Of a DNA stretch of 30,162 nt, positions 1,104-26,059 are shown in pieces. A program made the translations under genes and the position numbers. The notes beneath the pieces were generated by a model, which did not search any database, was not told the origin of the DNA, and saw nothing but the letters and a program-made list of their open reading frames with translations. Source of the stretch: a virus (lineage: Duplodnaviria > Heunggongvirae > Uroviricota > Caudoviricetes). The DNA lies in IMG/VR virus record IMGVR_UViG_2545824717_000013, one strand, 5' to 3'. Each line of letters opens with the position of its first letter. Positions within the stretch are counted from its first letter, which is position 1.

Positions 1104-1106
1104 GGT

Positions 1107-3079: not shown

Positions 3080-3561
3080 GACAGCAGCCCTCCCACCGTT
3101 TTACTGATATCACTTAAGGCAGACGTTGCCGTGTCCTGCAGATTATTCAGTTGCGCACTGAGATCACCGAACATATCGGACAGGGATTCATCCACTCGTT
3201 TGAGCGACAGGGTGAACTCAATCCGGCGCGGCATACCGTCGCGGAAAAACTCCGTTTTAGTCTGATTCAGTCCCTCAATCACATACATGCCGTAAATCGT
3301 GCCGCTGCCTTCAATCAGGGGCCATGCTTTCCCCTGTTCTGCCATCTGCTCCAGTGCCAGCAACGACAGCCTGCCACCTGTTATTTCCGGCATAAGAACA
3401 CCGGAAAGCGTCAGCATGTCGTTTTCCGGTCCCAGAAACTGCGTGGACGGACGTCGGTTTACCCGACTGTTTGCCGCATGTCGCCAGCTGCGTTGATACT
3501 GCAGTTCCTGATACGGAACGGTGCGCAGCATAAACACGTACAATCCCAGCACCATCATCAT
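3076..3561 (-). CDS. U: Phage tail protein gpU
   Basis: 161-aa ORF between tape measure and D, overlapping stop/start; P2 gpU-like. Confidence 0.8.
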   Translation of the reverse strand: MMMVLGLYVFMLRTVPYQELQYQRSWRHAANSRVNRRPSTQFLGPENDMLTLSGVLMPEITGGRLSLLALEQMAEQGKAWPLIEGSGTIYGMYVIEGLNQTKTEFFRDGMPRRIEFTLSLKRVDESLSDMFGDLSAQLNNLQDTATSALSDISKTVGGLLS

Positions 3562-6500
3562 GCGTCGTATCCCCCCTGATCGCTGTAGTTACTCCTGGCT
3601 TTTGCCTTCAGCCTGCGTTCACGTTCATCAAGCTGGCGTGCCACCTCCCGCGCAATATCCTGCGCACTTTGTCCTGGCTGCGTCTGAATGATGATCTGCG
3701 TCGGTGCCTCAATCCGTTGAACGAGCGGCACAGTGGCTGCGCGACTCACAATTGCTTCTCCACCTTTCGCGGGAAGTGCCAAAGGGTGCAACGGTGGAAG
3801 CTCTGCTGGCGCGGCAGCAACGCCCATCATTCCGGCAACAACGGCAGCCAGTGCAGCTGTATTTCTCCGGCTGGTCACATTTGCCGGGCCGTTAACAATT
3901 TCCGGCCCGTTTTCACCGACGATGCCAAACTGCCCGCGCGGGATATACCCGCCGCTGTCATACATCCCCGCAAAGCCATATCCCCATGATGGAAAACCAC
4001 CCGATGGCATCATCACTTTACCGTCTGCATTCACCGTCGCAGGTTTCTGACGCGTCACGCTTTCCGGCAGTTTTGCCTTTGCGGCCTCTTTACTGACAAT
4101 GCCGAGCTTCTCCAGCAACCAGGAAACGCCGGATTTCAGGGAGTCCAGCGGATGCATGACCATATTCAGCCCTTCCGCCAGTGCCTCCCCGAATCGCCGC
4201 CCCATTGCCGCTGCGCTCTGCAGTTCGGCAGAGGTCGACTTAACGGGCGTCAGCAGATCAGTAAACCAGCCCCACAGCGCCTGCACTTTGTCGCCAATCC
4301 ACTGGAACACGGGCTTAAGCGGTTCGAACGCTGCACTGATGGGACCTGCCGCCGCTTTGAATCCTTCCACCACGCCACCGAGAAATGCGGTGATGGGTTG
4401 CCAGTATTTCCAGACAACCAGCGCCACGCCCGCCAGTGCAGTAACCACAAGACCTATCGGACTGAGCAGAGCACCTAACAGACCAGATATGGCATACAGG
4501 GCAACGCGCAGCATCGCCAGTGGACCAGATGCCAGTACTCGCAGCACCGTGCCTGCGGCGGCCAGTCCACCGCGCAGTACCGCCAGAGGATTCATAAACA
4601 TCACAGCAACAGCACGTAAACCGGATAATCCAGACCGCAAAAGTGCAACCGGCGCACCTGCTACAGTTTTCAGGACATTTCCCGTCAGTGATGCCGTGCG
4701 GCGCAAAGACGACAACGGCGCAGTAAGTAAACCTGCGGCGTTGCCCGATGAAGCAAGCCCGCGTCGCAGCAGTGCCAGTGGTGCGCCAGCCAGCCAGGAC
4801 AACGCGCTGCTGGTTCGAGTTACTGCTGCCGTAACGGAAGATAACGTTTTGATACCCAACACAGAGAATCCCAGACGGATCACTGCCAGCGGCCCCAGCA
4901 CTGCAGCCAGCGCCACCGCTAAGGTGCCGAGGCCGACGGTAACCGCAGCCACAACAGCCGATGCTTTCATCAGTGTGCCTGTCAGTTCCGGGTTAGCTTC
5001 CACCCAGCGACGCAACGCCCCCGTGACGCTTTTCACCGTGTACAGAATATCCATCAGCGGCTGGCGCAGCGTTTCGCCCAGGCTGCTGAAGGTGTTCTGC
5101 GCTCCGGTTTTGACCAGCAACCACTGCGCAGAAAGTGAATCCTTGTTAATGTCGGATTCTTTCTGCATGGAGCCGAGCGCATCATTGCCCGCTGTCAGTT
5201 TTAACTGACGCTGCAGTTCCCGCAGGTTGTTTGCCAGTTTCGCCGCGTCATCGCCAAACTCTTTACCAAACAACATAGTCATGGCAGACAGGCGCTTGTC
5301 CTGCGGCAGCGCGTTTACCTTCTCCAGCACGCGCTGGATGGTTCCCATCGCATCCTTCGTCATCTGCTTTTCAATCACTTCAGGATTGAGTTTCAGCAGA
5401 TTCATCCCTTCAAAGAAACTCTTGCTTTGCATGGTGGCAATGGACAATTCACGCACCATCGCGTTTGCTGCACTGGCTGCAACCTCTGGCGCAGCGCCCA
5501 GTGTCAGGAAGGTGGAACCCAGCGCCGCCGCTTTACGATAATCCAGACGGTCAGCCACACCGCCCAGACGTTGCATCACATCAATGATGTCTGCCCCTTT
5601 CGACATGGCGTTATCATCCAGATAGTTCAGCGCATCACCGAGCTGTTCAATATTGCGGGTGGGGATTTTGTAGAGCTGGGCGATTTTCCCCAGACTTTCT
5701 GACAGTTCATCCGCTGGCAGCTCAAAGGCTGTTGCCGCCTTTGCTGCCGTACTGGCGAAGGCCAGCAGGTCACGTTTCTGATCTTCCCAGCTGTCGTCAG
5801 GGTTTGCGACGTTCATGCGCGCACCACCTTCAACCAGTGCAGCGAAGTCCACCGCACCGTTTTCCATCGGCAACTGTTCGCTGGCAGCCTTGATGGCATC
5901 CTGCATTTCATAAAAACGTGCAGTGCGGTTGCCATTATCGTCACGCAGACCATTGACCTGCTTTGCCACACCTTTCATGGCATCTTCCATGCTGGTATAG
6001 CTTTTTACTGCCGCCATCACTGGCGCACCCATTGCCAGCCCTGCAGCCGAGGTGGTGGCTCCGGCACCTGCAATACGATCACGCACCTCCAGCGAACGGG
6101 CATAACTGGCACGCGCTGCATTCATCCTGCGCTGAGCTTCCCCCAGTCGCTTCAGCCGCGCCTCCTGTTTCGAAAGTTCCTGGTTATAACGTGATGTTTC
6201 ACGGGCTAAACGGGCAGTTGCTCCCGCATCGTCTTTCGCAGAAATTCCCGCCCGGTACAGTTCAGCACGCACAAGCGCCGTCTGCTGCTGCAGCTTTTTC
6301 TGGCGTTCTTCCAGGCGCTGAACAGCCAGCCGTTGACGGCCCAGAGCAACAACCTGACGTTGCGAAGGCGGCCCCATCGCTCCCAGTTCCTGACTGAGCA
6401 AATTTGCACGCTGGCGGGCATAGTTCAGCCTGTCGCCTAATTTCTGATTTTCTGCCTGCAGCTTTCGGAAGCTGTCCAGACTGCTCCCGGCCTGATCAAG

Positions 6501-6635
6501 CTGCTTTATTGCATCGCGGGATTTTTTGACAGCAGCAGCCAGTTCTCTTGAACTGGCCTGCGCAGATCGAAATGGGCGGGTGAGCTTGTCAACCGCATTA
6601 AGAATGACCTGCAGACGCAGGTTGTTATCACTCAT
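3558..6635 (-). CDS. T: Tail tape measure protein gpT
   Basis: 1025-aa ORF, N-terminal coiled-coil-rich and central Ala/Gly/Leu-rich repeats; position after E/E'. Confidence 0.9.
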   Translation of the reverse strand: MSDNNLRLQVILNAVDKLTRPFRSAQASSRELAAAVKKSRDAIKQLDQAGSSLDSFRKLQAENQKLGDRLNYARQRANLLSQELGAMGPPSQRQVVALGRQRLAVQRLEERQKKLQQQTALVRAELYRAGISAKDDAGATARLARETSRYNQELSKQEARLKRLGEAQRRMNAARASYARSLEVRDRIAGAGATTSAAGLAMGAPVMAAVKSYTSMEDAMKGVAKQVNGLRDDNGNRTARFYEMQDAIKAASEQLPMENGAVDFAALVEGGARMNVANPDDSWEDQKRDLLAFASTAAKAATAFELPADELSESLGKIAQLYKIPTRNIEQLGDALNYLDDNAMSKGADIIDVMQRLGGVADRLDYRKAAALGSTFLTLGAAPEVAASAANAMVRELSIATMQSKSFFEGMNLLKLNPEVIEKQMTKDAMGTIQRVLEKVNALPQDKRLSAMTMLFGKEFGDDAAKLANNLRELQRQLKLTAGNDALGSMQKESDINKDSLSAQWLLVKTGAQNTFSSLGETLRQPLMDILYTVKSVTGALRRWVEANPELTGTLMKASAVVAAVTVGLGTLAVALAAVLGPLAVIRLGFSVLGIKTLSSVTAAVTRTSSALSWLAGAPLALLRRGLASSGNAAGLLTAPLSSLRRTASLTGNVLKTVAGAPVALLRSGLSGLRAVAVMFMNPLAVLRGGLAAAGTVLRVLASGPLAMLRVALYAISGLLGALLSPIGLVVTALAGVALVVWKYWQPITAFLGGVVEGFKAAAGPISAAFEPLKPVFQWIGDKVQALWGWFTDLLTPVKSTSAELQSAAAMGRRFGEALAEGLNMVMHPLDSLKSGVSWLLEKLGIVSKEAAKAKLPESVTRQKPATVNADGKVMMPSGGFPSWGYGFAGMYDSGGYIPRGQFGIVGENGPEIVNGPANVTSRRNTAALAAVVAGMMGVAAAPAELPPLHPLALPAKGGEAIVSRAATVPLVQRIEAPTQIIIQTQPGQSAQDIAREVARQLDERERRLKAKARSNYSDQGGYDA

Positions 6636-6761
6636 CGTTGGCCCCGCTTCTCTGAATCGCTTTATACCGCCATTCCAGCACTTCGGTCAGCGGCATAACG
6701 TCAGTAACGGATGGCGGCCAGTGAAAAATGGTGGCGATATCTGCCACCAGATCGTCAACCG

Positions 6762-7064
6762 TCAGGCTGTCGGTAAACCGGCAAGCACCGACTTCTTCAA
6801 CAAAAAAGTGACAACCTCAACCGACATGGCAGTGAGATCTGCCGGGTCCATCTCTGCAATTTCCTGTGCAGTCAGTGCCGGACTGGAGATGCGGGGGATC
6901 ACGGTCATCATCGCGTTTACATCCATATCCATAATGGCCTGCAGGCGTGTACCGCGCAGCGCACCGGACTGCGGTTTACGCAGCACAATTTCGGTGATTT
7001 CTGTTTTACCGCGCTTGATGGGGGTATCCAGTTGAATGGTCTTTTCAGTCTGCTTATCGCTCAT
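6762..7064 (-). CDS. E: Tail assembly chaperone gpE (E' extension by -1 frameshift to about 6633)
   Basis: 100-aa ORF between FII and T; contains T6G slippery run near its 3' end. Confidence 0.75.
   Translation of the reverse strand: MSDKQTEKTIQLDTPIKRGKTEITEIVLRKPQSGALRGTRLQAIMDMDVNAMMTVIPRISSPALTAQEIAEMDPADLTAMSVEVVTFLLKKSVLAGLPTA
6801..6808 (-). other. Slippery heptamer TTTTTTG for programmed -1 frameshift (E to E+E')
   Basis: Minus-strand CTTTTTTG within codons V-T-F-L-L-K-K of gpE; alternative frame appears to end in a TGA overlapping the ATG of T. Confidence 0.5.
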
Positions 7065-7118
7065 TTTGCTGTCCTGTCAATTGGGTTCTGGCGCGGTATC
7101 CCGCGCCGTTCAGATATA

Positions 7119-7634
7119 TCAGAGGCCGAGGGCGTTGCGGTGCGCTTCCATCAGGTCCACACCGTCCACAATTTCCACCATGTTGATAAGGTCCACTTCA
7201 TAGAGCACCTCACCATTGATGGTCAGCTTCGCGTAGCTGTTGGTACTGGTCACTTTGGTGGTGTTGCTTTCGCCCGTCTTCCACTCGCCGGAATCCACTT
7301 CTTTGTGACGTCCACGCACGACAAGCTCCACGGCCTGCACTTCCCCGGTATCGTCACGCTGAATAGAGCCGGTAAAGCGCAGCTGGATGCCATCCACCGT
7401 GGCTTTACCCATCTGTTTAAACAGCAGCAATTCAGTACCACCAATGGAAAATTCTGTATCCAGCGCACTGTCATCAAGCCCCAGATCCACATCCACCGCA
7501 CCCGGCATTCCGCCGCCGCGATACTTCTCATATTTGCGGGTAAATTTCGGCAGCGTCAGCGACTCAACGATCCCCTGCCAGTTGTTCCCGTCGTTAAACA
7601 GGTTCAGGTGTTTTAATTTGCGTGGTAAAGCCAT
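7119..7634 (-). CDS. FII: Tail tube protein gpFII
   Basis: 171-aa ORF directly downstream of sheath gene; P2 FII-like. Confidence 0.88.
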   Translation of the reverse strand: MALPRKLKHLNLFNDGNNWQGIVESLTLPKFTRKYEKYRGGGMPGAVDVDLGLDDSALDTEFSIGGTELLLFKQMGKATVDGIQLRFTGSIQRDDTGEVQAVELVVRGRHKEVDSGEWKTGESNTTKVTSTNSYAKLTINGEVLYEVDLINMVEIVDGVDLMEAHRNALGL

Positions 7635-7643
7635 GTTGTCCCC

Positions 7644-8816
7644 TTACGCGCTGACCTGGCTGGCGAAATTCACCAGGTACTGATCGGTGATGCGCTGACG
7701 CAGCATCAGGTTTTCAAGTGGCGGCACTGGCGTGTAGTCGTAGTCGATGGTGAGTTTTCCGGCTTTCAGCGTGTCTTTGTCGTTCACCGACTCATCCAGC
7801 CAGCAATCACCACCAATGAGATAGCCCTGACTGACCAGGCTGCGCATTTTGGCGCGGATACCTTCGATAATGTCGCGGGCCAGCGACGGGTTAAGCGGTT
7901 TATCCACCGCCCACATGTGTGCTTCTGCCATCGTGTCCATCAGCACCTGCGCCGTGCGGGTGTAGTTTTCGAAGGCAAAGAGCGGGTCATCACTCAGGCA
8001 GCGGGAACCCCAGAAGCGGAAACCGTCTTTACGCACAAGCGTGGTGACGTCGTTCTGGTTCAGCAGACCTGCATCGGTTGCCGGGTCCTGCAGATCCCAG
8101 AACACATCTGCAGAAATTCCGGTGACACCGTTCACGCCCACGTTGGACAGGCTTTTGTGCCATCCGGTCTGCTCGTCAATTTTGGCGCGCAGACCAAGCG
8201 CACGGGCGGTGGCATATGCCGTTGCTTCGGCTTTCAGCACCGTGTCCCAGCCAGTAAAGTCAGGCCAGATCAGCATCCCTTCGCGCTGGCTGAAGTTTTC
8301 GCGGTAAGTGATCGCCTCCTGCACTGTCTTGCAGCCATACGCTGACAGGTAAGCAAATCCACGCAGGCTTTGCGCCACGCTCAGCAACTCAGTAGCTACC
8401 GCCTTGGTGTCGTGGCCTGGCACGCCGAGAATGCGCGGTTTAACGCCGAGCTGTGACTGGGCAGATAACAGGGCTTTCATACCTGTTTTTTTACCTTCAG
8501 CAGTCACTGCGCCGATGATATTGGTCGTGGTTTCGTCTTCCGTTTCACCCTGCGGCACACGCACAACAATGGTCACGGGTTTTGCCTGGTCAGCGATGGC
8601 ATCCAGCGAACGGGCCAGAGTACCTGACTCACCCGCTTTACCGCTGGCAGTCAGCACATCAGTGATCAGCACGGGTTTATTAAGAGGAAACATTTTTGCA
8701 TCGGCATCATCGCCCGTGCAGACCATACCCACGATGGCGGTGCTCACCGTGGTAATAGATCGGGTGCCTTCGTTGACTTCAACAACGCGCACCCCGTGGT
8801 GGTAATCCTGAGCCAT
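7644..8816 (-). CDS. FI: Tail sheath protein gpFI
   Basis: 390-aa ORF, P2 FI-like, first gene of FETUD operon. Confidence 0.9.
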
Positions 8817-8892
8817 AGTGGCGAACCTCCTGATTGGATTAGGCTTCGCCCTATGTTGAAGTGATTGTGCCTGACAAACAGCTAAGCGCAGT

Positions 8893-8910
8893 TGTGTCGT
8901 TATTCACACA
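8893..8910. promoter_or_regulatory. TGT-N12-ACA element, candidate Ogr-dependent late promoter upstream of FI
   Basis: TGTgtcgttattcacACA located about 80-95 bp upstream of the FI start; matches the dyad described for P2 late promoters. Confidence 0.4.
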
Positions 8911-8958
8911 AAATAACGGTATTTGTCTGCTTGCAGGGATAATCAACATAATGCTGAT

Positions 8959-9531
8959 TCAGGGGGATTCATTGATCTTATTTGCCGGAAATTTTCTATA
9001 AATGGTAGAAACGCCTACATCAAAAATCAGTGCAATACGCTGTCTTGATTCTCCGGCCTCGAGTAAACGCCCAATCTGTGCCCACTGTTCGGTGGTCAAC
9101 TTAGGACGGCGTCCACCTACTCTGCCTTTGGCACGAGCTGCAGCCAGCCCTGCCCTGGTACGTTCAACTATCAGTTCGCGTTCCATTTCAGCCAGGGCAC
9201 CCATGACATGAAAAAAGAAACGGCCCATTGGGGTACTGGTATCAATACTGTCAGTCAGGCTTCTGAAATTCACACCACGCTGGCGCAACTCTTCTATCAG
9301 CGTAACAAGATGCCGCATACTGCGCCCCAACCTGTCCAGCTTCCAGACAACCAGCGTGTCTCCTGCCGATAGTGTCCTGAGTAGTTTTTTCAGCCCCGGT
9401 CTGTCGGACTTAGTGCCACTGATTTTGTCCTCAAAAATCCGCTCACATCCCGCGCAGTTCAGTGCATTACGTTGCAAATCGGTGTTCTGGTCATTTGTTG
9501 ACACGCGTACATAGCCAATAAGCATGATCAT
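8959..9531 (-). CDS. Hin/Gin/Pin-family serine DNA invertase
   Basis: 190 aa; MLIGYVRVSTNDQNTDLQRNAL... catalytic Ser motif and C-terminal HTH; closely resembles e14 Pin from memory. Confidence 0.9.
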   Translation of the reverse strand: MIMLIGYVRVSTNDQNTDLQRNALNCAGCERIFEDKISGTKSDRPGLKKLLRTLSAGDTLVVWKLDRLGRSMRHLVTLIEELRQRGVNFRSLTDSIDTSTPMGRFFFHVMGALAEMERELIVERTRAGLAAARAKGRVGGRRPKLTTEQWAQIGRLLEAGESRQRIALIFDVGVSTIYRKFPANKINESP

Positions 9532-10493: not shown

Positions 10494-11067
10494 CATTCGG
10501 CGCGGTGCTGGTATCTATTGCCGTCACCGCGTCAATGTAATCCAGCACAGCGTTAAGCCGGGTTGTTTCTGCCTGCGTCAGTTTCCGTCCGGCCTGTAAT
10601 TTCAGCTGAATCAGACTAATGGAAGCCATTGCAGCATCAATCAGTGACTGGCGCTGTGCTTCTGCCGCGTCTACTGCGGCGCTATGCTGTGCCTCAGTAT
10701 CCGTCACCCATTTCTCACCATCCCATTTATCGTATGGCGTTAATGGGGCGATAGTGGTTGTATTATTAGGGTAATCACCCGGAGCTGTGATTTCTTTTGA
10801 TTCTCCTGTTTCGGTGCTAAAGACGATTTCACCGCGATGGTCTGGCACATATTCCCATGAGTTAAAATCTGCAGAACGGCAGATTGCATAACCAGCTTTG
10901 TATGCGCCTGGAGCATCTAAACAGGAACATGCCGGAATGCCGACACCAACGGCAAGATATTCAGTTGATATGGAAATATATTCCCGTGTTTCACCATCAT
11001 AATTATAGACAGTAATATCCCCCGCCTTCGTGGCAATAAACTCGCTATTTAATACAGCGCTATCCAT
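10465..11067 (-). CDS. Tail fibre assembly protein
   Basis: 200 aa, immediately downstream of tail-fibre C-terminal segment; 3' ends of the two tfa genes overlap convergently. Confidence 0.8.
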   Translation of the reverse strand: MDSAVLNSEFIATKAGDITVYNYDGETREYISISTEYLAVGVGIPACSCLDAPGAYKAGYAICRSADFNSWEYVPDHRGEIVFSTETGESKEITAPGDYPNNTTTIAPLTPYDKWDGEKWVTDTEAQHSAAVDAAEAQRQSLIDAAMASISLIQLKLQAGRKLTQAETTRLNAVLDYIDAVTAIDTSTAPNVIWPELPEA

Positions 11068-11537
11068 TATGCAGCCCTCACAATGTAGTTAAATGCGATG
11101 TTGCGTGGACGGACACCGAAATAAGAAGTAACACCATTCATTGTCAAATTTCCAGAGCCAAAAGCGGTAAAACCAGAACCAGCATTAACTGCCGAATCCG
11201 CGTTTCTGACAAAGTTTTTGGGAGGTGAACCGGAGACACCAGCCGAAATATCATCAGCGTTACCGCCATTGCCGTGGTGGTTAGTTATCTTTGTTTCCGC
11301 CTGCGCCGTCAACAAACCTCGTCCAGAGTCAACCCCGCGCCCGTCATCCCAGCCGCGAATAAACTCACCACGTAAATCAGGCAATTTATTTGTCGGATAA
11401 GCCTTTGCCAGTTCCGGGTATTCTTCAGCAGAAAAAGCTGCACCATTGCATTTCAGCCAGCCTGTTGGCGGAGTGGCTGAAGGCCACGGAACAGGGACAC
11501 CAACAGGTAATGCAGAGCCTTCTCCCAAAGCCGTCAT
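11067..11537 (-). pseudogene. Tail fibre (gpH-like) C-terminal receptor-binding segment lacking the constant N-terminal part
   Basis: 156 aa with tail-collar-like motif PVGVPVPWPSATPPTGWLKCNGAAFSAEEYPELAKAYP; only about 21 bp separate its first codon from the terminase gene on the other strand. Confidence 0.75.
11519..11533. other. Partial gix-like half-site (right end of invertible segment) abutting a deletion junction
   Basis: CTTCTCCCAAAG is the inverted counterpart of the outer half of the left site; the expected second half is not recognisable. Confidence 0.35.
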
Positions 11538-11558: not shown

Positions 11559-13325
11559 ATGAACACCACACTGACACCCGCAGATCTCGATCCCCGTCGG
11601 CAGGCCATGCTGCTGTACTTTCAGGGATACCGCGTAGCCCGCATTGCTGAAATGCTGGGCGAGAAAGTTGCAACCGTTCACAGCTGGAAAAAACGCGACA
11701 AGTGGGGTGACTATGGGCCGCTGGATCAGATGCAGCTCACCACCGCCGCACGCTACTGCCAGCTCATTATGAAGGAGCACAAAGAAGGGAAAGATTTCAA
11801 AGAAATTGACCTGCTGGCGCGCCAGTCGGAGCGCCACGCGCGCATCGGCAAGTTTAACAATGGCGGTAACGAAGCCGACTTAAACCCTAACGTCGCCAAC
11901 CGCAACAAAGGCCCGCGCCGTCAGCCGGAAAAGAATGTTTTCACCGATGAGCAGATTGAGAAGCTGGAAGAAATCTTCCATTCCTCCATGTTCAACTACC
12001 AGCGCCACTGGTGGGAAGCCGGAAAAACCAACCGCATCCGCAACCTGCTGAAGTCTCGCCAGATCGGCGCGACCTTCTATTTTGCGCGTGAAGCCCTGAT
12101 TGACGCCCTGCTTACCGGACGTAACCAGATTTTCCTTTCTGCCAGTAAGGCTCAGGCCCACGTCTTTAAACAATACATCATCGACTTCGCCAAAGAAGTC
12201 GAGGTGGAGCTAAAAGGCGATCCGATGGTGCTTCCTAACGGAGCCACGCTTTACTTCCTCGGCACCAATGCCCGCACGGCCCAGAGTTATCACGGCAACC
12301 TTTATCTGGATGAATATTTCTGGATACCGAAATTCCAGGAGCTGCGCAAAGTGGCTTCCGGGATGGCTATTCACAAGAAATGGCGACAAACCTATTTTTC
12401 CACGCCATCCAGCCTGACCCACAGTGCTTATCCGTTCTGGTCCGGTGCGCTGTTCAACCGTGGACGCAACAAAGCTGACAAGGTGGACATCGATCTGTCC
12501 CACAGCAATCTGGCCCCCGGCCTGCTGTGCGCAGACGGGCAATACCGCCAGATAGTCACCGTGGAAGATGCGGTGCGCGGCGGCTGTAACCTGTTCGACC
12601 TCGACCAGCTGCGCATGGAGTACAGCCCGGACGAATACCAGAACCTGCTGATGTGCGAGTTTGTGGACGATCTCGCGTCCGTGTTCCCGCTCAGCGAACT
12701 GCAGGCGTGCATGGTGGACAGTTGGGAAGTCTGGACCGACTTTCATGCACTGGCCCTGCGCCCGTTTGGCTGGCGAGAGGTGTGGATCGGTTATGACCCG
12801 GCAAAAGGTACGCAGAACGGTGACAGTGCCGGGTGCGTGGTGGTGGCTCCGCCAGCCGTGCCGGGCGGTAAGTTCCGTATTCTTGAGCGTCACCAGTGGC
12901 GCGGGATGGACTTCCGCGCCCAGGCGGACGCCATCAAAAAACTGACCGAACAGTACAACGTGACATACATCGGCATCGACTCGACAGGTGTCGGTCACGG
13001 GGTTTATGAGAACGTGAAAGCGTTCTTTCCTGCCGTCCGGGAGTTTGTCTACAACCCCAACGTTAAAAACGCCCTGGTACTCAAGGCCTACGACATTATT
13101 AGCCACCGCCGCCTGGAGTTTGACGCCGGGCACACCGACATAGCGCAGTCCTTTATGGCAATCCGTCGCGCCACCACTGCCAGCGGCAACCGCCCGACCT
13201 ATGAAGCCAGCCGCAGCGAAGAAGCCAGCCACGCCGATCTGGCCTGGGCAACAATGCACGCACTGTTTAATGAACCGCTGCAGGGCGAGTCCGCCAATAC
13301 CAGCAATATTGTGGAGATTTTTTGA
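11559..13325 (+). CDS. P: Terminase large (ATPase) subunit gpP
   Basis: 588 aa, P2 gpP-like, followed by portal gene with overlapping stop/start. Confidence 0.9.
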   Translation: MNTTLTPADLDPRRQAMLLYFQGYRVARIAEMLGEKVATVHSWKKRDKWGDYGPLDQMQLTTAARYCQLIMKEHKEGKDFKEIDLLARQSERHARIGKFNNGGNEADLNPNVANRNKGPRRQPEKNVFTDEQIEKLEEIFHSSMFNYQRHWWEAGKTNRIRNLLKSRQIGATFYFAREALIDALLTGRNQIFLSASKAQAHVFKQYIIDFAKEVEVELKGDPMVLPNGATLYFLGTNARTAQSYHGNLYLDEYFWIPKFQELRKVASGMAIHKKWRQTYFSTPSSLTHSAYPFWSGALFNRGRNKADKVDIDLSHSNLAPGLLCADGQYRQIVTVEDAVRGGCNLFDLDQLRMEYSPDEYQNLLMCEFVDDLASVFPLSELQACMVDSWEVWTDFHALALRPFGWREVWIGYDPAKGTQNGDSAGCVVVAPPAVPGGKFRILERHQWRGMDFRAQADAIKKLTEQYNVTYIGIDSTGVGHGVYENVKAFFPAVREFVYNPNVKNALVLKAYDIISHRRLEFDAGHTDIAQSFMAIRRATTASGNRPTYEASRSEEASHADLAWATMHALFNEPLQGESANTSNIVEIF

Positions 13326-14359
13326 TGGGAAAGAGTAAGAAAAACCGCGCTGCGTCGACGAAACAGATCCAGCATAAAAGCCAGACTTCAGCCGAAGCAT
13401 TCAGCTTCGGTGATCCCGTTCCTGTTCTGGACCGCCGCGAACTGCTGGACTATGTGGAATGCGTACAGATGGATCGTTGGTATGAGCCGCCTGTGAGTTT
13501 CGACGGACTGGCGCGAACCTTCCGCGCCGCCGTGCATCACAGCTCACCGATTGCAGTGAAGTGCAACATTCTGACCAGCACCTACATCCCTCACCCGCTG
13601 CTCAGCCAGCAGGCTTTTTCGCGTTTTGTACAGGACTATCTGGTTTTTGGTAACGCCTACCTGGAGAAACGCACGAACCGCTTCGGTGAAGTTATCGCCC
13701 TTGAGCCTGCACTGGCAAAATACACCCGACGCGGGTTAGACCTGGATACCTACTGGTTTGTGCAATACGGTATGACTACGCAGTTGTATCAGTTCACGAA
13801 AGGCAACATTTTTCATCTGATGGAACCGGACATCAACCAGGAGATCTACGGTCTGCCCGGTTATCTTTCTGCCATTCCGTCAGCTCTGCTCAACGAGTCC
13901 GCCACGCTGTTCCGCCGCAAGTATTACATTAACGGCAGTCATGCAGGCTTCATCATGTACATGACCGATGCTGCGCAGAACCAGGAGGATGTGAACAACC
14001 TCCGCAATGCGATGAAAAGCGCCAAAGGTCCTGGTAACTTCCGTAACCTGTTTATGTACTCGCCTAACGGTAAAAAGGACGGGCTTCAGATTATCCCGTT
14101 GTCAGAAGTGGCGGCGAAGGATGAGTTCCTGAATATCAAGAACGTGAGCCGGGACGACATGATGGCGGCGCATCGTGTGCCGCCACAAATGATGGGGATA
14201 ATGCCTAATAATGTCGGGGGGGTTGGGGATGTGGAGAAAGCCAGTCGCGTATTTGTACGTAATGAATTAACGCCCTTGCAAAAAAGGCTACAAGAGCTGA
14301 ACGACTGGCTGGGCGAAGAAGTGATTAAATTTACGCCCTATATTCTTTCAGAAGAATAA
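13322..14359 (+). CDS. Q: Portal (capsid) protein gpQ
   Basis: 345 aa, P2 gpQ-like, transcribed toward the cos region. Confidence 0.9.
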   Translation: MMGKSKKNRAASTKQIQHKSQTSAEAFSFGDPVPVLDRRELLDYVECVQMDRWYEPPVSFDGLARTFRAAVHHSSPIAVKCNILTSTYIPHPLLSQQAFSRFVQDYLVFGNAYLEKRTNRFGEVIALEPALAKYTRRGLDLDTYWFVQYGMTTQLYQFTKGNIFHLMEPDINQEIYGLPGYLSAIPSALLNESATLFRRKYYINGSHAGFIMYMTDAAQNQEDVNNLRNAMKSAKGPGNFRNLFMYSPNGKKDGLQIIPLSEVAAKDEFLNIKNVSRDDMMAAHRVPPQMMGIMPNNVGGVGDVEKASRVFVRNELTPLQKRLQELNDWLGEEVIKFTPYILSEE

Positions 14360-14367
14360 TTCCGAAC

Positions 14368-15066
14368 TTATTTGTTTCTTCTTTGTTCACGCCTTGTCTT
14401 GGCTTCGATAAGGCGTTGAGGTTCAGTGTAAAGCCGTTCTAAAAAAAGATAGGTAAAATCTTCAAGATCCTCAGCAGCAGCTTTATCCAAAATACCTTCA
14501 TGCGCTCCATCATTTCCGTCATCTTTAACGCATTCAGCTAGTTCCCTTAAAGCTTCAGGCAGTAGATGATTATCAAATAACCACTCCATTCTTAACCCTA
14601 GGCTTCTCCTTATTTTTTGCGCAGGCCCTTGCTCCCCATCAGGAAGAAGTCCTTTTGTGGCATAATCAAGGCAAAGCCTAAACATGGTTGCTGCTGCATT
14701 ATAACAACCTATAGCCAAACATTTCGCCCCTTCCTCATATGCACTATTGATATGCTCAGGTAAGAACTCTGGTGGCTCCTCTACTGCTAAGTCTGCTGGT
14801 GATATAGGCCTAACAACCTCTGCAACTTCCTTTAAGCCGAATATTCCACTTTCCCAATTATAGCCATCTAAAGTTTTATTTTTCGTTAAAGGTCTGCAAA
14901 GAAACATTGTCGTTTTATGACACTCTCGGCAAACACAATAGACCTCGTACTCGTATGTTTTACCCCCGCCCAATGCATTGTAAACCCTAGTGCAATTCAG
15001 CCCATTAACATCAAACGCTATTTTTTGTGATCCACATCGTGGACAGTCATCCACTAACATAACCAT
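14368..15066 (-). CDS. Zinc-ribbon plus DUF4145/HEPN-like domain protein (candidate abortive-infection/defence gene)
   Basis: 232 aa in AT-rich insert; N-terminal CPRCG...CRECH Cys pairs; C-terminal AATMFRLCLDYATKGLL...GNDGAHEG resembles DUF4145 as I recall it. Confidence 0.55.
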   Translation of the reverse strand: MVMLVDDCPRCGSQKIAFDVNGLNCTRVYNALGGGKTYEYEVYCVCRECHKTTMFLCRPLTKNKTLDGYNWESGIFGLKEVAEVVRPISPADLAVEEPPEFLPEHINSAYEEGAKCLAIGCYNAAATMFRLCLDYATKGLLPDGEQGPAQKIRRSLGLRMEWLFDNHLLPEALRELAECVKDDGNDGAHEGILDKAAAEDLEDFTYLFLERLYTEPQRLIEAKTRREQRRNK

Positions 15067-15175
15067 GTCAATTACTCCTCCCTATGAAAAAAATGAGTTG
15101 AAAAATTGAATATTCACGACTTAAAAAGCTAGCCTATTTAACACCATAATTTCATTAATTCAACCATGAGCGCGC

Positions 15176-15196
15176 GCTCGTATCCCCGCCACGCCT
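15176..15196. other. Probable cos site (cohesive-end region)
   Basis: Minus strand reads GGCGTGGCGGGGATACGAG, whose first 13 nt match the 186/P2-type cohesive end as I remember it (GGCGTGGCGGGGAAAGCAT); GC-rich island between two AT-rich genes. Confidence 0.4.
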
Positions 15197-15355
15197 GCCC
15201 GCTTTATGTAGTGGTTTTCATGCGCCTGCATGACATAAGCAAAAGCCCGCCACTCCTGGCAGGCCTCAGCTAAAACGATCCTCAAACGATCATGCGGATT
15301 CATGCGGCATAGACATGCACAATCGCCAAAGCGGGCATCGAGACTTTTTGGAAAC

Positions 15356-15967
15356 CTACGTAACCACAGTTAATGTGTGCATCCTGTCTCGAATTGCATC
15401 ACACGTCTCATCAAAAAGCTTGGTAATGGTTGTACGGTTCAACTCTGCCTCTTTCCAATAATTTTGCCCGTCAAAATCTGGATCGCTATGCTGAAACGAT
15501 ATTGACTCTGAAAGGCATTCCTTCCGGAAACGGTCCAAGATTATATAAACCTCTGGTGAGATGAACGGTTTGTTAGACTCAACACTTGTAACAAAAGTAT
15601 TAAATGTATCGAAAAAAACTTTCAACCTTCTAAGTTTTCTCTCTTCAAATGGTTCGTTGAGGTCGACATGATCCAGCGCAGGCCTAAGCTTAAGCACGCT
15701 TTCTCTTATTTCAAACATCGAATTCCAAATGAGACTATATGCTGATAACTCCTTATCAAAATACGCTTTCGTTACATAAACAGAATTGTCTAACTTAGCC
15801 TTTATTCTTTCATTAGTTGCACTCAGTTGTGATTGAAATTCAGCAATATCTTTGTTTAGCCGCGACTTATATCTTTCTAAATAAACTTTCCCGATCCAAA
15901 CAAATATGCCAGATGCAACAAAAGACACCCCACCCAACGAAGCCAGAACTTTAAAGACTAAATCCAT
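15356..15967 (-). CDS. Membrane-anchored protein of unknown function (candidate defence/moron gene in the P2 tin/old position)
   Basis: 203 aa, AT-rich; hydrophobic N-terminal helix FKVLASLGGVSFVASGIFVWIG followed by a charged, helix-rich soluble region. Confidence 0.55.
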   Translation of the reverse strand: MDLVFKVLASLGGVSFVASGIFVWIGKVYLERYKSRLNKDIAEFQSQLSATNERIKAKLDNSVYVTKAYFDKELSAYSLIWNSMFEIRESVLKLRPALDHVDLNEPFEERKLRRLKVFFDTFNTFVTSVESNKPFISPEVYIILDRFRKECLSESISFQHSDPDFDGQNYWKEAELNRTTITKLFDETCDAIRDRMHTLTVVT

Positions 15968-16015
15968 TGCGCCCCCACCTGCAAAAATAGTATTCCAATA
16001 TAAGCTAATACATTT

Positions 16016-16327
16016 TTAATCAAATAGGGAATAATTCGCGTCAACCTCATCACTTCTCTGCTCTCCCCTGGTGACTTCCATCAAAAACCCGAGGCCGTCA
16101 TATAGCGAAACGGAGAATTCCAGCTCAAGCCAGAAGCAGTCTTCATAGGTGCGGCCCAACCAAAAACCTCCGCCACACTCCTTTGGTCGTTGAAAGAAGA
16201 CCCAGCCGCTATGGGTAAACCGCTCCAGCACCTGGTCCCGATAAATAATCTGGTGATTACTGTCTTTTTTACCCTTGGCTAACGCCTCGCTACTCTCGTT
16301 ATTCAACCTTGCTGACGTCAGAATCAA
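16016..16327 (-). CDS. Hypothetical ORF (TTG start), possibly a remnant
   Basis: 103-aa ORF in the same frame as the gene A fragment but separated from it by stop codons; no recognisable motifs. Confidence 0.25.
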   Translation of the reverse strand: MILTSARLNNESSEALAKGKKDSNHQIIYRDQVLERFTHSGWVFFQRPKECGGGFWLGRTYEDCFWLELEFSVSLYDGLGFLMEVTRGEQRSDEVDANYSLFD

Positions 16328-16432
16328 GTTCTTACATCCGGAACGTTCCTTAGTGCAGCCAGCTGTCGTCTTCCCAAACCTGCTGCATAATTTCCATCAC
16401 CCGCTTTTTGTCTTCATCAAGCTTTAAGCCAC

Positions 16433-17683
16433 TCAGTTCAACGCCGTTTGCCGACCCTTTACGGATGCGGATACCGTCGCATTTGTCCAGGTTGGGTTTG
16501 GTCTGCCGTTATTGAGCGTGGAATGGAAACGTGACGGACAGGTAATGGTGTAGAAAACGGCGCAATCACCACGCATTTCCGCGATAAGCTCCAGACCTTT
16601 AACACAGGCCATCATCTCATTGCGGCGGTGCGCCGGGTTGCTGCTGCTGGCGTTTACCACGTCTTCCATATCCAGCGTGTCGCCCTCTTCGTTCACCAGT
16701 TCATGAGAACGGAAAAACTCCAGTGACTTGCGGCGCTGCTCACGTTTATGCATCACGGCTTCATAGCTGACATAGGGAGATGCTTTTTTGCTGACCAGGC
16801 AGACAGCACGCAACTGCTCTTCCCGCCATTCGCAACGCATCTTCCATAATTTCCGATACCACCAGTCGGCACACAACATACGCGCCAGCGAACCCGGAAT
16901 GAGTTCATAGGGCACGGGTTTACGGCGGTTTCTTTTCCGACGGAGTTGCTCAAACGCAGGCGGAATAACATCCAGACGCAGGGTTTCCGCTGCCACCTTT
17001 TCCCATGTTTTGCGGATTTCTTCTGGCTTAACGTCATCGGTGGCATACAAATCACCACAAGCGGCATCAAGGCACATGCTCATATGCGCAGCGACAAGGG
17101 TAGACAGGCGCTTCACCTGATCCTGACTCATTTCAGGCAGGATAAGCAGGCCGTCCAGCCCTTCATGGCTTGCCATAAAACGAAAAGATGCAGATAGCTG
17201 GCTGTCGCGTACATGCTCCAGTCGTTCCAGACATGGCTTAATCGTCTCACGTAAATAGCGGGAATAAGCCTTTGGCCTGCCTAGGCTGCTAAAGTATTCA
17301 ATACGTTGCATCAGCGGCTTGCTGATATGGGAAGGCTGGGCGTTGACGTCCGCCAGAATGACCATATCCGGATTAAAACGCTGCTGCTCATGCGCCAGCT
17401 TTGCCCGGCTAATGAGCTTATCCTGCTCCATTTCGCGCTGGACAGGATCACGTGATTCATTAAAAAAATAACGCTCCCAGACCTGATCACTCAGTGCCTC
17501 GCGGCGCAGTTGTTCCTGCTCGTTATCGGCAGCGTACAGAGTGATCAGGTTTGAAAGCGCAGAAACCGGCGCAACTTCCGCCGGGTCCAGATAAGGGTTA
17601 ATGGCCTTTTTCGGGCTGTTCCATGAGAACGCTGCGGCAGCCTCGTTAAAGCCGCAGCAGTTGTTCATATCGGCATGACTCAT
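16433..17683 (-). pseudogene. A: Replication initiation endonuclease gpA, N-terminal fragment (3'-truncated)
   Basis: 416 aa ending shortly after a rolling-circle motif-1-like FYTITCP; P2 gpA is about 760 aa and the catalytic Tyr region is not present downstream. Confidence 0.7.
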
Positions 17684-22385: not shown

Positions 22386-24128
22386 TTACATTGATAAATA
22401 ATCCAACTCATCTTTCATAGGAATAATTTGTTCATATAATCGATGATATGATTTACCAATTGCCCCTCTAAATTGAATTAATTTAGGTGGATTATTACCT
22501 ATATTAATAATATGATCTTGTGCAATACCCGGATAAGGATCAATGAAAATTATTTCAGCGACCTCTAATTGATATGCTTTTTTTGCACAAAGTTCACAAG
22601 GACTTGCTGTAGTATACAACTTACCACCTTGGACACCAACGCCACCATATTTAGATAATTGTAAAAAGGCATTTTCTTCAGCATGTAAAGCTCTGGTATG
22701 GACCTGATTCCCTTTTTTATTATCATCAAGACTATTATGAATATCCTTGAAGCAATATGACAAATTACGTCCTTTAAAAATTTCAGAGCTTGATTCAATC
22801 GCTCTAAACTTTATTAAATTACTTTTAGCTTTCTTTCTAAAAAGAGCATCATTTCGCTCATATGAGCTATATACTTTCGAATCAAAATCATTGATCAACC
22901 CATCGAGTGATCTCATTGAACATGGTATCTGCCCTTTAGCTACATCATTCCAACCAACTGATTTAATTGAATTATCATTATCTGTAACAACGGCACCGAC
23001 CTGCCTCGATATACATCCAGAGTTTAATTTAACAGTATATGCGACCTGCATAACTCGCTCCATCGCTGTAGGAGTGATCAATCCAGGATGCTTCATTAGA
23101 GCGATATACCATGCAAGTTGTGCTTTAAGTATGTTATTGTTATCAAACTCATTTTTAGGATTATAAAGATGTATATCTGAAATTTCTATGCATTTCGTTA
23201 CATTAGGGTTCGTTAAATGTTTATATTGATTGTCTTTATCTCCTTTTCCTGATTCAATATCATCAATGTGTTTAATGCGCTCAGATGAAAACTTGTGTAG
23301 CTTCTGTAAATATTTTTTCCTATGCTCATCAGGAGCATTAATTGATACCAAATGGAATGCAGCATATCTATCTTTAAAGAATTTAGCTTCATATGGATTA
23401 CGTATAGCATCAATAACTACTAATGCCTTACCACCTTGGCTTTTTCTAATTAGCTTAATGACCCTATTAATAGTTTCAGGCAAATGAAATACCGATTTTG
23501 GATCAAATTCTTCTGTTTCATAGTTTGTTTTTACTTCACCAAGCCGTCTAACAGATTTTCCAGCGGCCTGATAAGTTGATACATAAAGACCTGTATTTAT
23601 CTCATTAAGTTCTTTTTTGAAGTTATTAGTGAAAAACCTAACCAAATGCAATGTTTTTCTTATGTTAGATACATCTAGATTATCGAGATCTAATTCTTGA
23701 CTATGATCAATAAGTGCTTTTAATATATCCGTCCTTATTTTTCTAAGTTGTGTTTTTGAAAATGCTCCTTCATTAAGTATCTTGTTTAATTTATCTTCAT
23801 CAATGCTATCTTTAGTTGACGACGTGATGAAGTGTGAAAGTTCAGTATGTGACATTGCTAACAAATAAACTGATAGCAAGTCACTAACCTTGATTGAGTA
23901 AAATGCCTCCCAATGATTCTCAGTGAAATCCTTAACTATCTTATAACGCTGTAAATCTAAACCATTATAAAAATCAGTTAATTTATCCACATCGGGAAAT
24001 ACTGTCTCATTACTTTCTAAAATAGTTGCTGCTGTAGTACAACCAGAACCAGTTCTTCCAGTTAAGCCAACTAGAATAAACTGCCCATTTTCTAAAAAAA
24101 GTTCACTTACGAATTTCTGTGTTTTCAT
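22386..24128 (-). CDS. Kinase-like plus cytidine/dCMP-deaminase fusion protein (antiviral dCTP deaminase DCD/AvcD-like)
   Basis: AT-rich ORF; C-terminal HAEENAF...SPCELC zinc-binding deaminase signature; N-terminal GLTGRTGSG P-loop-like motif; start placed at Met preceded by GGGG RBS (ORF track extends to 24284). Confidence 0.75.
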   Translation of the reverse strand: MKTQKFVSELFLENGQFILVGLTGRTGSGCTTAATILESNETVFPDVDKLTDFYNGLDLQRYKIVKDFTENHWEAFYSIKVSDLLSVYLLAMSHTELSHFITSSTKDSIDEDKLNKILNEGAFSKTQLRKIRTDILKALIDHSQELDLDNLDVSNIRKTLHLVRFFTNNFKKELNEINTGLYVSTYQAAGKSVRRLGEVKTNYETEEFDPKSVFHLPETINRVIKLIRKSQGGKALVVIDAIRNPYEAKFFKDRYAAFHLVSINAPDEHRKKYLQKLHKFSSERIKHIDDIESGKGDKDNQYKHLTNPNVTKCIEISDIHLYNPKNEFDNNNILKAQLAWYIALMKHPGLITPTAMERVMQVAYTVKLNSGCISRQVGAVVTDNDNSIKSVGWNDVAKGQIPCSMRSLDGLINDFDSKVYSSYERNDALFRKKAKSNLIKFRAIESSSEIFKGRNLSYCFKDIHNSLDDNKKGNQVHTRALHAEENAFLQLSKYGGVGVQGGKLYTTASPCELCAKKAYQLEVAEIIFIDPYPGIAQDHIINIGNNPPKLIQFRGAIGKSYHRLYEQIIPMKDELDYLSM

Positions 24129-24547: not shown

Positions 24548-25777
24548 ATGGCCAAAATCGCTAAGAAGCTCACTGACACTGAAATCAAAAGCACCAAACC
24601 TGCCGAAAAAGAGGTTAACCTTTTTGACGGCGATGGTTTGCTGTTGCGAATCGCTCCCCTGGCGAAGGGAGGGAAGAAAAATTGGTATTTCAGATATGCA
24701 GTGCCTGTGACCAAAAAGCGAACTAAGGTGAGCTTAGGAACCTATCCTCACCTTACACTTGCGAAGGCACGAGCTTTACGTGATCAATACTTGTCGTTGC
24801 TTACAAATGGTATAGACCCCCAAGTTCATAACAACCAAAAAGCCAATGCACTGAAAGATGCCACGGAACATACATTTCAAGCAGTAGCCAAGAAGTGGCT
24901 TGATGAGAAAGTCAAAACGTCAGGCATCTCCCAAGATCATGCTAACGACATCTGGCGAAGCCTAGAGAGAAATATCTTTTCCACATTGGGTGATACCCCA
25001 ATTAAGGAGATTCGCCCTAAAATGCTTAAACAGCATTTAGAACCCATAGAAAAACGAGGTGTCCTTGAAACACTTCGCCGCATCATATCCCGCCTGAATG
25101 AAATTTTCCGCTATGCAGCAACAGAAGAACTCATAGAATTCAACCCGGCAGACAACCTGGGGCAACGGTTCAGCAAGCCAAAAAAACAGAATATGCCAGC
25201 ATTACCCCCTTCCGAACTCCCTCGCTTCTTGGTTGCTCTAAACAATGCTTCTATCCGTTTGGAAACAAGGCTACTGATTGAGTGGCAACTTCTCACATGG
25301 GTTCGCCCAGGTGAAGCTGTTCGCACAAGATGGTCAGATATTGATATTGAAACTGGCATGTGGAACATCCCGGCGGAGTTTATGAAAATGAAGAAGCCTC
25401 ACAAAGTTCCACTGAGCAAAGAAGCTTTGCGAGTTTTGGATTTAATGAAAGTCATCAGCGGGCATAGAGAGTGGGTGTTCCCCAGTATCAAAGCTCCACT
25501 CAATCACATGCATGAACAAACAGCTAATGCGGCCATAATCCGTATGGGTTTCGGAGGTGAGCTTGTAGCTCACGGTATGCGATCCATTGCTAGAACGGCT
25601 GCTGAGGAGTCTGGCAAGTTTAGGACTGATGTCTTAGAAGCCGCCCTTGCCCACTCGAAGAAAGATGAAATAATTGCAGCCTACAATCGTGCAGAGTATC
25701 TCACTGAACGGGTGGTTCTCATGCAATGGTGGAGTGACTATGTTTCGTCTCAAAAATGCAAAGTTATTGCCGCATAA
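24548..25777 (+). CDS. intA: P4/CP4-57-type tyrosine integrase
   Basis: N-terminal LTDTEIKSTKP...DGDGLLLRI...WYFRY typical of P4-family integrases; start placed at MAKIAKK with GAGGG RBS (ORF track starts at 24467). Confidence 0.88.
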   Translation: MAKIAKKLTDTEIKSTKPAEKEVNLFDGDGLLLRIAPLAKGGKKNWYFRYAVPVTKKRTKVSLGTYPHLTLAKARALRDQYLSLLTNGIDPQVHNNQKANALKDATEHTFQAVAKKWLDEKVKTSGISQDHANDIWRSLERNIFSTLGDTPIKEIRPKMLKQHLEPIEKRGVLETLRRIISRLNEIFRYAATEELIEFNPADNLGQRFSKPKKQNMPALPPSELPRFLVALNNASIRLETRLLIEWQLLTWVRPGEAVRTRWSDIDIETGMWNIPAEFMKMKKPHKVPLSKEALRVLDLMKVISGHREWVFPSIKAPLNHMHEQTANAAIIRMGFGGELVAHGMRSIARTAAEESGKFRTDVLEAALAHSKKDEIIAAYNRAEYLTERVVLMQWWSDYVSSQKCKVIAA

Positions 25778-25839
25778 CTCTCCCATGATGGATTAACTAT
25801 CTTGATTTAGTTAAAGAATTAATAATCACACCATTAACC

Positions 25840-25889
25840 TATGTGGACTAAGCATAGCCATTTACAAATGGGGACATTGAGTCCACATA
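25840..25889. repeat. 10-bp inverted repeat TATGTGGACT / AGTCCACATA with 30-bp spacer upstream of the serine recombinase gene
   Basis: Perfect 10-bp arms in an AT-rich intergenic region. Confidence 0.3.
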
Positions 25890-26059
25890 ACGAAAGCTGT
25901 CGGTCATATCAGCTAAATAATTCACATCTCTTCTCGATTATCATACACCTCGAAGATCTACCAAATTCGCTCTAATCAATGATAAAACAGTTGAATTCGG
26001 TTGAAATTTGATCAATTTTATCCACTACATTGTATTGAATCATCCATGAGGTTTCGTGC

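Follow-up and report, generated by a model that had tools for sequence, protein, structure and literature searches.

Two AT-rich cargo genes flanking the cos site of a decayed P2-like prophage as candidate single-gene immunity determinants

Layout of the Cos-Proximal Locus

The IMG/VR virus record IMGVR_UViG_2545824717_000013, a 30,162-nt stretch of Caudoviricetes DNA referred to here as the window, holds a P2-like prophage in which two minus-strand genes lie between the truncated replication gene A and the portal gene Q. Open reading frame A (ORF-A; 14368..15066) encodes a 232-aa protein, WP_000245245.1 in the closest complete genome, that joins a zinc ribbon to a DUF4145/HEPN domain and belongs to a distant sister family of the defense protein RAZR (PD-T7-4). 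ORF-B (15356..15967) encodes a membrane-anchored helical protein of 203 aa (WP_000366629.1 in the same genome; phrog_26391). The locus is anchored on one side by Q (13322..14359, plus strand), which converges with ORF-A across an 8-bp gap and is preceded by the terminase gene P (11559-13325, plus strand), and on the other side by gene A (16433..17683, minus strand), which survives as a 416-aa ORF.

A preliminary description of the window, made from its letters alone, had picked out these two genes as more AT-rich than the phage backbone. This is borne out by a G+C content (GC) of 41.6% in ORF-A and 38.2% in ORF-B, with third-position values (GC3) of 31 and 38%, compared with 56.6% (GC3 70%) in P, 51.4% (GC3 62%) in Q, and 53.1% (GC3 58%) in A. 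The spacer between the genes had been called GC-rich, which is correct in relative terms but not in absolute ones, as its overall value is only 46%. The same spacer had been thought to hold the cos site, and it does so: positions 15169..15227 are identical in 59 of 59 nucleotides to the annotated cos of phage Cartapus, whose linear record terminates there. The cos core GGCGTGGCGGGGATACGAG, the reverse complement of 15178-15196 and the equivalent of the 19-nt cohesive end, can be aligned to the P2 cohesive end GGCGAGGCGGGGAAAGCAC at the P2 cosR/cosL junction.

The old/tin locus of P2 is the natural comparison for this arrangement (Odegrip, 2006; Rousset, 2022, PMC9122126). It shares the anchors A, cos, and Q, and its cargo is likewise AT-rich, hypervariable, and expressed in the lysogen. 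In P2, however, the interval from A to cos contains both tin and old, which are read in the direction opposite to A, and no gene is found between cos and Q, whereas the window has one gene on each side of cos, both on the strand of A and both unrelated to old or tin. The tin/old position that had been proposed for the pair is thus, in the strict sense, that of ORF-B alone; ORF-A occupies a second sub-slot that P2 leaves empty.

ORF-A and Its Relationship to RAZR

The N-terminal domain of ORF-A (about residues 1-90; 14797..15066, minus strand) is beta-rich and carries a zinc ribbon in which C8, C11, C46, and C49 are invariant in all 120 homologues aligned, as expected of the double Cys-pair ribbon noted at the outset. 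In the AF2 (AlphaFold2) model, strands at residues 3-59 and 82-87 build a beta-hairpin domain. The C-terminal domain (about residues 104-231; 14374..14757, minus strand) is helical. Residues 114-203 match Pfam PF13643 (DUF4145) at 30.3 bits against a cut-off of 23.1, and the model shows a four-helix up-down core of the HEPN type, so that the DUF4145/HEPN assignment also holds. The presumed active-site motif, K181-D-D-G-N-D-G-A-H189 (14500..14526, minus strand), is a divergent DUF4145 form, K-x7-H, compared with the R-x4-6-H found at the dimer interface in the HEPN superfamily, and is the counterpart of R-x2-G-N-x2-[AV]-H in other DUF4145 proteins. Position 181 is K in 118 of the 120 sequences and R or Q in one each, and the further invariants of the family are R130, D134, G184, N185, D186, G187, A188, and H189. 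A strong Shine-Dalgarno sequence, GGGAGGAG (15075..15082, minus strand), can be read directly 8 nt 5' of the ATG.

The family is large, with 603 matches to the single sequence and 2238 to a profile, and its members are full-length proteins of about 230 aa. The two halves differ in conservation, the mean frequency of the top residue being 0.52 in the N-terminal half and 0.76 in the HEPN half. The median ratios of nonsynonymous to synonymous substitution rates (dN/dS) are 0.22 and 0.05, respectively, which places both halves under purifying selection. The N-terminal domain is thus the variable one and is presumed to be the sensor.

A named relative was found in the PADLOC models, where PD-T7-4 (PDLC04109) is the sole family match of ORF-A (26.1 bits, E 1.2e-6) and is matched by 114 of the 120 family members, at best with an E value of 3.6e-11. 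PD-T7-4 was discovered in Escherichia coli UMB1727 (Vassallo et al., 2022, PMC9519451). It has since been renamed RAZR, for ring-activated zinc-finger RNase, and its mechanism has been solved (Zhang et al., 2026, PMC13017515). In RAZR, a Cys4 zinc ribbon at the N-terminus precedes a C-terminal DUF4145 domain, a divergent HEPN RNase in which R146 and H154 are both essential. Around phage rings, namely T7-type portals and Gp77 of SECphi27, RAZR assembles into a 24-mer, after which it cuts RNA non-specifically; specificity is set by the zinc-finger domain, which is variable, and no second gene is needed (Zhang et al., 2026, PMC13017515). ORF-A is therefore not an orphan, since it has a named and mechanistically understood relative. 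The original statement that neither gene matches a named defense system holds for ORF-B, which has no PADLOC match, and fails for ORF-A.

In place of the RAZR sequence or structure, a protein of Streptococcus phage Javan263 served as the bridge to the RAZR family. It is a bona fide PD-T7-4 member, with 235.9 bits over model positions 7-208. An hhalign comparison of the ORF-A family with this protein gives a probability of 95.6% (E 1.3e-8) over 187 columns that span both domains, and places the Cys pairs of ORF-A on CPNC and CQAC, and K181 and H189 on the R and H of the motif (R146 and H154 in RAZR). Sequence searches of the PDB with ORF-A and with its family profile gave no relevant match and no solved RAZR, and a Foldseek search of the PDB with the ORF-A model gave weak HEPN matches only, of which 2q00 was the best at a probability of 0.85; the RAZR entries 9Y9C and 9Y6U were not among them.

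ORF-A thus resembles RAZR as a single gene of about 220 aa, carried on a mobile element, with a Cys4 ribbon, a linker, a C-terminal DUF4145/HEPN domain, and the x2-G-N-x2-A-H motif with its conserved His. Its variable N-terminal domain parallels the specificity-setting zinc-finger domain of RAZR (PMC13017515). The differences are considerable. ORF-A scores 26 bits on the PADLOC model where the true member scores 236, its ribbon and linker region appears about 35 residues longer when judged from the offset between ORF-A and model positions, and it has Lys in place of the essential Arg146. Furthermore, it sits by cos and Q of P2-like phages, whereas homologues of PD-T7-4 are reported to overlap the integrase gene. 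The four remote phage DUF4145 homologues compared all keep the Arg in the pattern R-x2-[GA]-N-x2-[AV]-H, and because the Arg position is Lys in nearly the whole ORF-A family, ORF-A is classed by its sequence as a divergent sister family of RAZR and not as a member.

By analogy, ORF-A most likely works like RAZR, and it is probably a RAZR-like HEPN RNase that is assembled by a trigger and acts by abortive infection. In such a mechanism, the variable zinc-ribbon domain would recognize a phage protein assembly. Binding of the phage-made oligomer, which for RAZR is a portal or recombinase ring, would move the HEPN dimers into a new position and set off non-specific cleavage of RNA, and this would halt translation and abort the infection. 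The clade of ORF-A carries K-x7-H where RAZR has R-x7-H.

The exchange of Arg for Lys also admits a different reading, in which ORF-A is a catalytically altered RAZR-like protein that benefits the phage, either by shielding its portal rings from RAZR-like sensors of the host or as a nucleic-acid-binding regulator. This is quite unlikely. The near-universal Lys would suit such a protein, as would the label "DNA binding protein" attached to phrog_1305, the PHROG family to which ORF-A is assigned. However, H189 and the whole of G-N-D-G-A-H are invariant, a change from R to K is conservative, and a dN/dS of 0.05 in the HEPN half reflects very strong purifying selection.

Other HEPN proteins offer no closer model. 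AbiV, the HEPN domain of AbiA, HEPN-MNT toxins, and Csm6 all differ from ORF-A, whose motif is of the DUF4145 type and which lacks a partner antitoxin. DS-38 of DefensePredictor, the other zinc-finger and HEPN gene that has been validated, was considered as a possible identity for ORF-A and rejected. It corresponds to HEP2 (WP_001313577), a 366-aa protein with the HEPN domain first, a canonical R-x4-H motif, and multi-Cys fingers at the C-terminus, an architecture unlike that of ORF-A.

A further protein of related build is ORF17 of Virgibacillus phage Mimir87 (L017 2683-3615), a 310-aa zinc ribbon and DUF4145 protein that scores 43.7 bits on the PD-T7-4 model and carries an N-terminal extension of about 100 residues. 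Its gene is flanked by the distal tail protein gene on one side and a tail protein gene on the other, and such a tail module is an unusual setting for a RAZR-like gene.

ORF-B, a Membrane-Anchored Helical Protein

ORF-B has one hydrophobic segment, with a Kyte-Doolittle mean of 2.0 over 19 residues, at about residues 7-25 (15893..15949, minus strand). In the AF2 model, which has a predicted local distance difference test (pLDDT) score of 84.7, a helix spanning residues 2-60 is followed by a four-helix bundle (residues 67-198; 15374..15769, minus strand). This agrees with the single N-terminal transmembrane helix and helical body predicted for it earlier. The family alignment follows the same order, with an N-terminal hydrophobic helix, a variable coiled-coil stretch, and a conserved core. 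In the bundle, E73, P134, E154, and R195 are invariant in the family, and F70, W81, L94-R95-P96, F135, I192, and R193 are nearly so. Lys and Arg are in excess after the helix relative to before it in 69 of 70 family members (mean 3.5 vs. 0.4), which predicts a cytoplasmic location for the bundle, with the N-terminus out and the C-terminus in.

A word-index search found 21 close relatives of ORF-B, and an exhaustive search found at least 786 cluster representatives at 50% identity, mostly full-length proteins of about 200 aa. ORF-B has no family match in Pfam, NCBIfam, or PADLOC, and phrog_26391 is of no known function. Pfam and PADLOC scans of 70 family members gave scattered coiled-coil noise only, and a PDB sequence search with ORF-B returned nothing relevant. 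RefSeq calls the protein a "valyl-tRNA synthetase" in several genomes. This is a misannotation, as the name goes back solely to a coiled-coil similarity to Val_tRNA-synt_C that stays below threshold (E 0.009; 16.7 bits, cut-off 25.9).

Single-gene, AT-rich membrane proteins that prophages express in the lysogen are classically exclusion or abortive-infection factors of the Sie, Imm, and AbiP types. ORF-B resembles Sie-type proteins, T4 Imm, and lactococcal AbiP in being small, borne on a mobile element, expressed in the lysogen, and anchored at its N-terminus, a resemblance that is a lead only. The same can be said of TMO1 (DS-13) and D295 (DS-40). The predicted cytoplasmic bundle, with its invariant E73, E154, and R195, is without a characterized counterpart. 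Tentatively, ORF-B may be a membrane-tethered single-gene exclusion or abortive-infection factor. It would be a single-pass inner-membrane protein with the N-terminus outside, and its coiled-coil stalk and four-helix bundle would extend toward the cytoplasm. At the inner membrane, it would act as a stand-alone determinant of superinfection exclusion or abortive infection.

A role unrelated to immunity, either as a lysogenic-conversion or host-fitness factor or in some membrane function of the phage or satellite, is possible though somewhat doubtful. Such a role would be consistent with the lack of a match to any defense model and with the fold, as generic four-helix bundles are known also in sensor domains. 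Some cargo of the hotspot is indeed non-defensive, such as partition systems and a cytolethal distending toxin (Rousset, 2022, PMC9122126). Its classical company among lysogen-expressed membrane proteins speaks against it, as do the genes that replace ORF-B in its slot and the other sites at which its relatives are found.

Hotspot Context and Distribution

The gpA-gpQ locus of P2-like phages is an established hotspot for anti-phage defense (Rousset, 2022, PMC9122126; Vassallo et al., 2022, PMC9519451). ORF-A and ORF-B lie within it, between A with its DinI remnant and Q and near cos, and both are swapped for unrelated genes in sister prophages (comparison loci L004-L006 and L010-L013). WP_000245245 occurs at least 17 times in the entries available from Table S5 of Rousset (2022, PMC9122126), including an arrangement given as "hyp + DinI + hyp + WP_000366628 + DUF4145," in which WP_000366628 is the LF82 allele of ORF-B. 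The hotspot is thus already known, and the exact order of the two genes has been catalogued as one of about 1,650 arrangements in it.

The cargo on both sides of cos is variable, a point for which the preliminary description had proposed a survey. In E. coli, the Q-side slot can hold ORF-A or a PIN protein. In Enterobacter P2-like prophages with an ORF-B orthologue, it holds an OLD-like ATPase, STM3845 with a reverse transcriptase, AAA_21 with RloB, or an unknown 223-aa protein. Bona fide defense systems in the place of ORF-A count against a phage-serving role for that gene. On the A side, the alternatives are ORF-B, a DUF2971 protein, a 433-aa protein, or nothing. DUF2971 proteins of 372 aa are predicted to be defensive in the available portions of the DefensePredictor tables (Tables S6, S10), and a shorter DUF2971 protein is given there as validated under the name DS-45. 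This alternation with DUF2971 and other defense-type cargo argues against a role of ORF-B outside immunity. An instance is seen in the enterotoxigenic E. coli (ETEC) isolate L3_E36 (L006 4967-6085), where a 372-aa DUF2971 protein fills the ORF-B slot beside an ORF-A allele of 81% nucleotide identity.

Of 5426 complete E. coli genomes, 43 carry ORF-A and 52 carry ORF-B; both genes are present in 25, ORF-A without ORF-B in 18, and ORF-B without ORF-A in 27. The two genes are thus separable accessory cargo, as had been supposed. These counts bear on the suggestion that ORF-A and ORF-B form one two-gene system split by cos, with ORF-A as sensor or RNase and ORF-B as membrane effector. The genes are adjacent, on the same strand, similarly AT-rich, found together in those 25 genomes, and co-induced in LF82. 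Nevertheless, a joint system is very improbable. Each gene occurs without the other, ORF-A faces a DUF2971 protein, a 433-aa protein, or nothing across cos, and ORF-B is paired with PIN, OLD-like, reverse-transcriptase, or RloB systems. In addition, cleavage at cos separates the two genes to opposite ends of the virion DNA, and RAZR acts as a single gene (PMC13017515).

Of 56 IMG/VR loci that contain a relative of ORF-A, about 46 show this relative and a P2-type Q as direct convergent neighbors (L026-L071). This convergence persists where Q is 62-68%, P 67-69%, and A about 30% identical to the genes of the window, with ORF-A itself at 49-57%, which indicates that ORF-A is a long-standing resident of the Q-side slot in part of the Peduoviridae. 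Across these loci, the identity of ORF-A falls from 100 to 49% as that of Q falls from 98-100 to 62-64%. ORF-B, by comparison, is found in only 4 of these approximately 46 P2-like loci. Turnover is faster in the A-side slot than in the Q-side slot. The tight linkage of ORF-A to the portal gene deserves attention because RAZR senses portal rings, and its age favors the portal-shielding alternative described above, but it may simply reflect the hotspot. The ORF-A family is also found outside P2-like phages, for instance beside the integrase of another element in Pseudomonas, which does not suit a protein devoted to the portal.

Six neighborhoods of ORF-B relatives were looked up, two of them on contigs too short to inform. 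Two remote homologues (48 and 38% identity) immediately follow int-AlpA in small satellite-like elements (L008 6063-13916; L009 5302-16621). These elements split the major-capsid gene (L008) or the terminase gpA gene (L009) of a prophage, carry a primase and capsid or protease genes of their own, and have the appearance of phage satellites that entered the late genes of another prophage. Another homologue lies in the immunity region of the temperate Pseudomonas phage Riah. Recurrence after int-AlpA and in a phage immunity region is more readily reconciled with an immunity function of ORF-B than with a role in host fitness.

Transcription in the Lysogen

Published RNA-seq data for strain LF82 (PMC9928086, Table 1, S1 Table), which is not the strain of the window, cover orthologues that are 95.6-100% identical. 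In lysogeny broth (LB), the ORF-B orthologue (LF82_789/CARTA_47) reaches 45.8 normalized counts and is scored as a moron, 7-fold above the local background, and the ORF-A orthologue (LF82_788/CARTA_1) reaches 25.6 (PMC9928086). The late genes give 5.7 for the terminase and 7.7 for the portal, within a range of 5.7-8.5 for terminase, portal, and tail genes, and the orthologue of ORF-C, the gene upstream of ORF-B, gives 9.0 (CARTA_46; PMC9928086). The ORF-A orthologue rises in Dulbecco's modified Eagle medium (DMEM) and in macrophages, from a log2 value of 4.7 to 9.6, and the ORF-B orthologue rises likewise, with log2 values of 5.4 (LB), 8.6 (DMEM), and 10.5 (macrophages); the terminase and portal genes are flat in all conditions, and the ORF-C orthologue and DinI are up only in macrophages (PMC9928086).

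Because the expression of both orthologues differs from that of the flanking genes, these data support separate promoters for ORF-A and ORF-B, and thereby the independent expression first proposed from their separation by cos. The step from 9.0 counts in CARTA_46 to 45.8 in CARTA_47 specifically implies an independent promoter for ORF-B. A candidate, picked by eye, lies at 15997..16023 (minus strand), where TTGATT and TATATT are separated by a 15-nt spacer and overlap the stop codon of ORF-C. Transcription of the ORF-A orthologue in a lysogen whose late genes are silent fits lysogenic conversion better than the protection of portals during lytic growth.

Two Independent Immunity Cassettes as the Favored Reading

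Taken with the anatomy of the genes, their modularity, and the hotspot, the reading favored here is that ORF-A and ORF-B are two independent moron cassettes expressed in lysogeny, each conferring single-gene immunity, placed in both halves of the cos-proximal gpA-gpQ hotspot. Its probability is put at roughly 0.55. The anatomy, homology, fold, context, and modularity of the genes and the transcription of their orthologues in a lysogen are shown by the data, whereas an anti-phage phenotype of either gene is inferred, as are the RNase activity and trigger of ORF-A and the mechanism of ORF-B.

Several observations weigh against this reading. For ORF-A, the PD-T7-4 match of 26 bits covers only positions 39-165 of the 211 in the model. 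Since Lys replaces the Arg146 that RAZR requires, the catalytic pair R-x7-H is represented by its His alone and RNase activity is not assured. No homologue of ORF-B has a known function, the fold matches of its model are generic helical bundles, and hhalign gave probabilities of about 1% or less against the validated membrane-protein defense genes TMO1 (both proteins) and D295. A scan for consensus promoters found none on the minus strand upstream of ORF-A or ORF-B. The induction of the ORF-B orthologue in DMEM and macrophages could equally reflect a host-fitness role. Furthermore, Rousset (2022, PMC9122126) does not place this arrangement among the validated systems and no record of its testing was found, the literature searched contained no phenotype data for ORF-A or ORF-B, and the motifs of both are absent from the accessible part of the DefensePredictor test set.

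An active ORF-A would mean that the RAZR principle, in which the geometry of phage ring assemblies turns on an immune RNase, also covers a sister family that is much larger (at least 2238 proteins), differs in its zinc-ribbon domain, and has Lys for Arg at the active site. As ORF-A is borne by phages that make a portal ring of their own, it would also raise the question of how self is told from non-self. ORF-B, for its part, would add a compact membrane-anchored fold, missed by PADLOC 2.0 and Pfam, to the candidate immunity genes of prophages. A more far-reaching proposal combines both genes and is unlikely to hold. ORF-B would found a widespread single-gene family of membrane-tethered anti-phage proteins that occupies the cos slot of P2-like phages and the int-AlpA slot of satellites, and the K-x7-H RAZR-like clade would be kept by the portal gene because sensor and resident portal must remain matched and non-triggering, so that the prophage responds to foreign ring-forming proteins, among them the portals of rival P2-like phages, and spares its own.

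Other Features of the Locus and the Decayed Prophage

ORF-C (phrog_2100; 16016..16327, minus strand) adjoins DinI and is a conserved backbone gene outside the variable cargo; ORF-C and DinI are kept in loci with differing cargo. ORF-C has 103 codons in the window and 86 (261 nt) in Cartapus and LF82, and the choice of start codon or the A-DinI deletion close by may have produced its longer N-terminus as an artifact. A 47-codon ORF (15160-15303, minus strand) overlaps cos, is annotated in none of the matching records, and is probably spurious. An Rfam search of the locus found no RNA family.

The prophage itself is decayed. Gene A, which measures 2415 nt when intact in Cartapus and LF82, is a pseudogene in RefSeq; its product matches Pfam Phage_GPA over profile positions 1-216 of 321 and is fused to the DinI remnant at about 16350-16472. 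A tail-fiber fragment of 156 aa (11067-11537) directly abuts the terminase gene P, and all head, lysis, and baseplate genes are missing. Despite this decay, both cargo genes are intact, with ORF-A matching its counterparts in undecayed prophages at 99.9-100% identity.

Over positions 14200-16500, the sequence agrees with E. coli TW10598 at 100% identity and with the LF82 prophage Cartapus (Peduoviridae) at 97-98%. The match to TW10598 is restricted to 9335-30162, at 99.67% identity. The left 9.3 kb (1-9334) represents a different P2-like variant, with its best match of 98.9% in strain PSS-08-2, and the break falls at the invertase gene. This part holds a transfer-messenger RNA (tmRNA) gene at its end (698-1060), gene D, the tape measure and sheath genes, and an intact invertase ORF of 190 aa. 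Beyond the prophage integrase (about 22386-24128, minus strand; 24548-30162), the matching annotation of TW10598 lists an "anti-phage dCTP deaminase," followed by a second integrase, a large recombinase, two ParB-family genes, and IS1. The prophage thus has another mobile or defense island as its direct neighbor.

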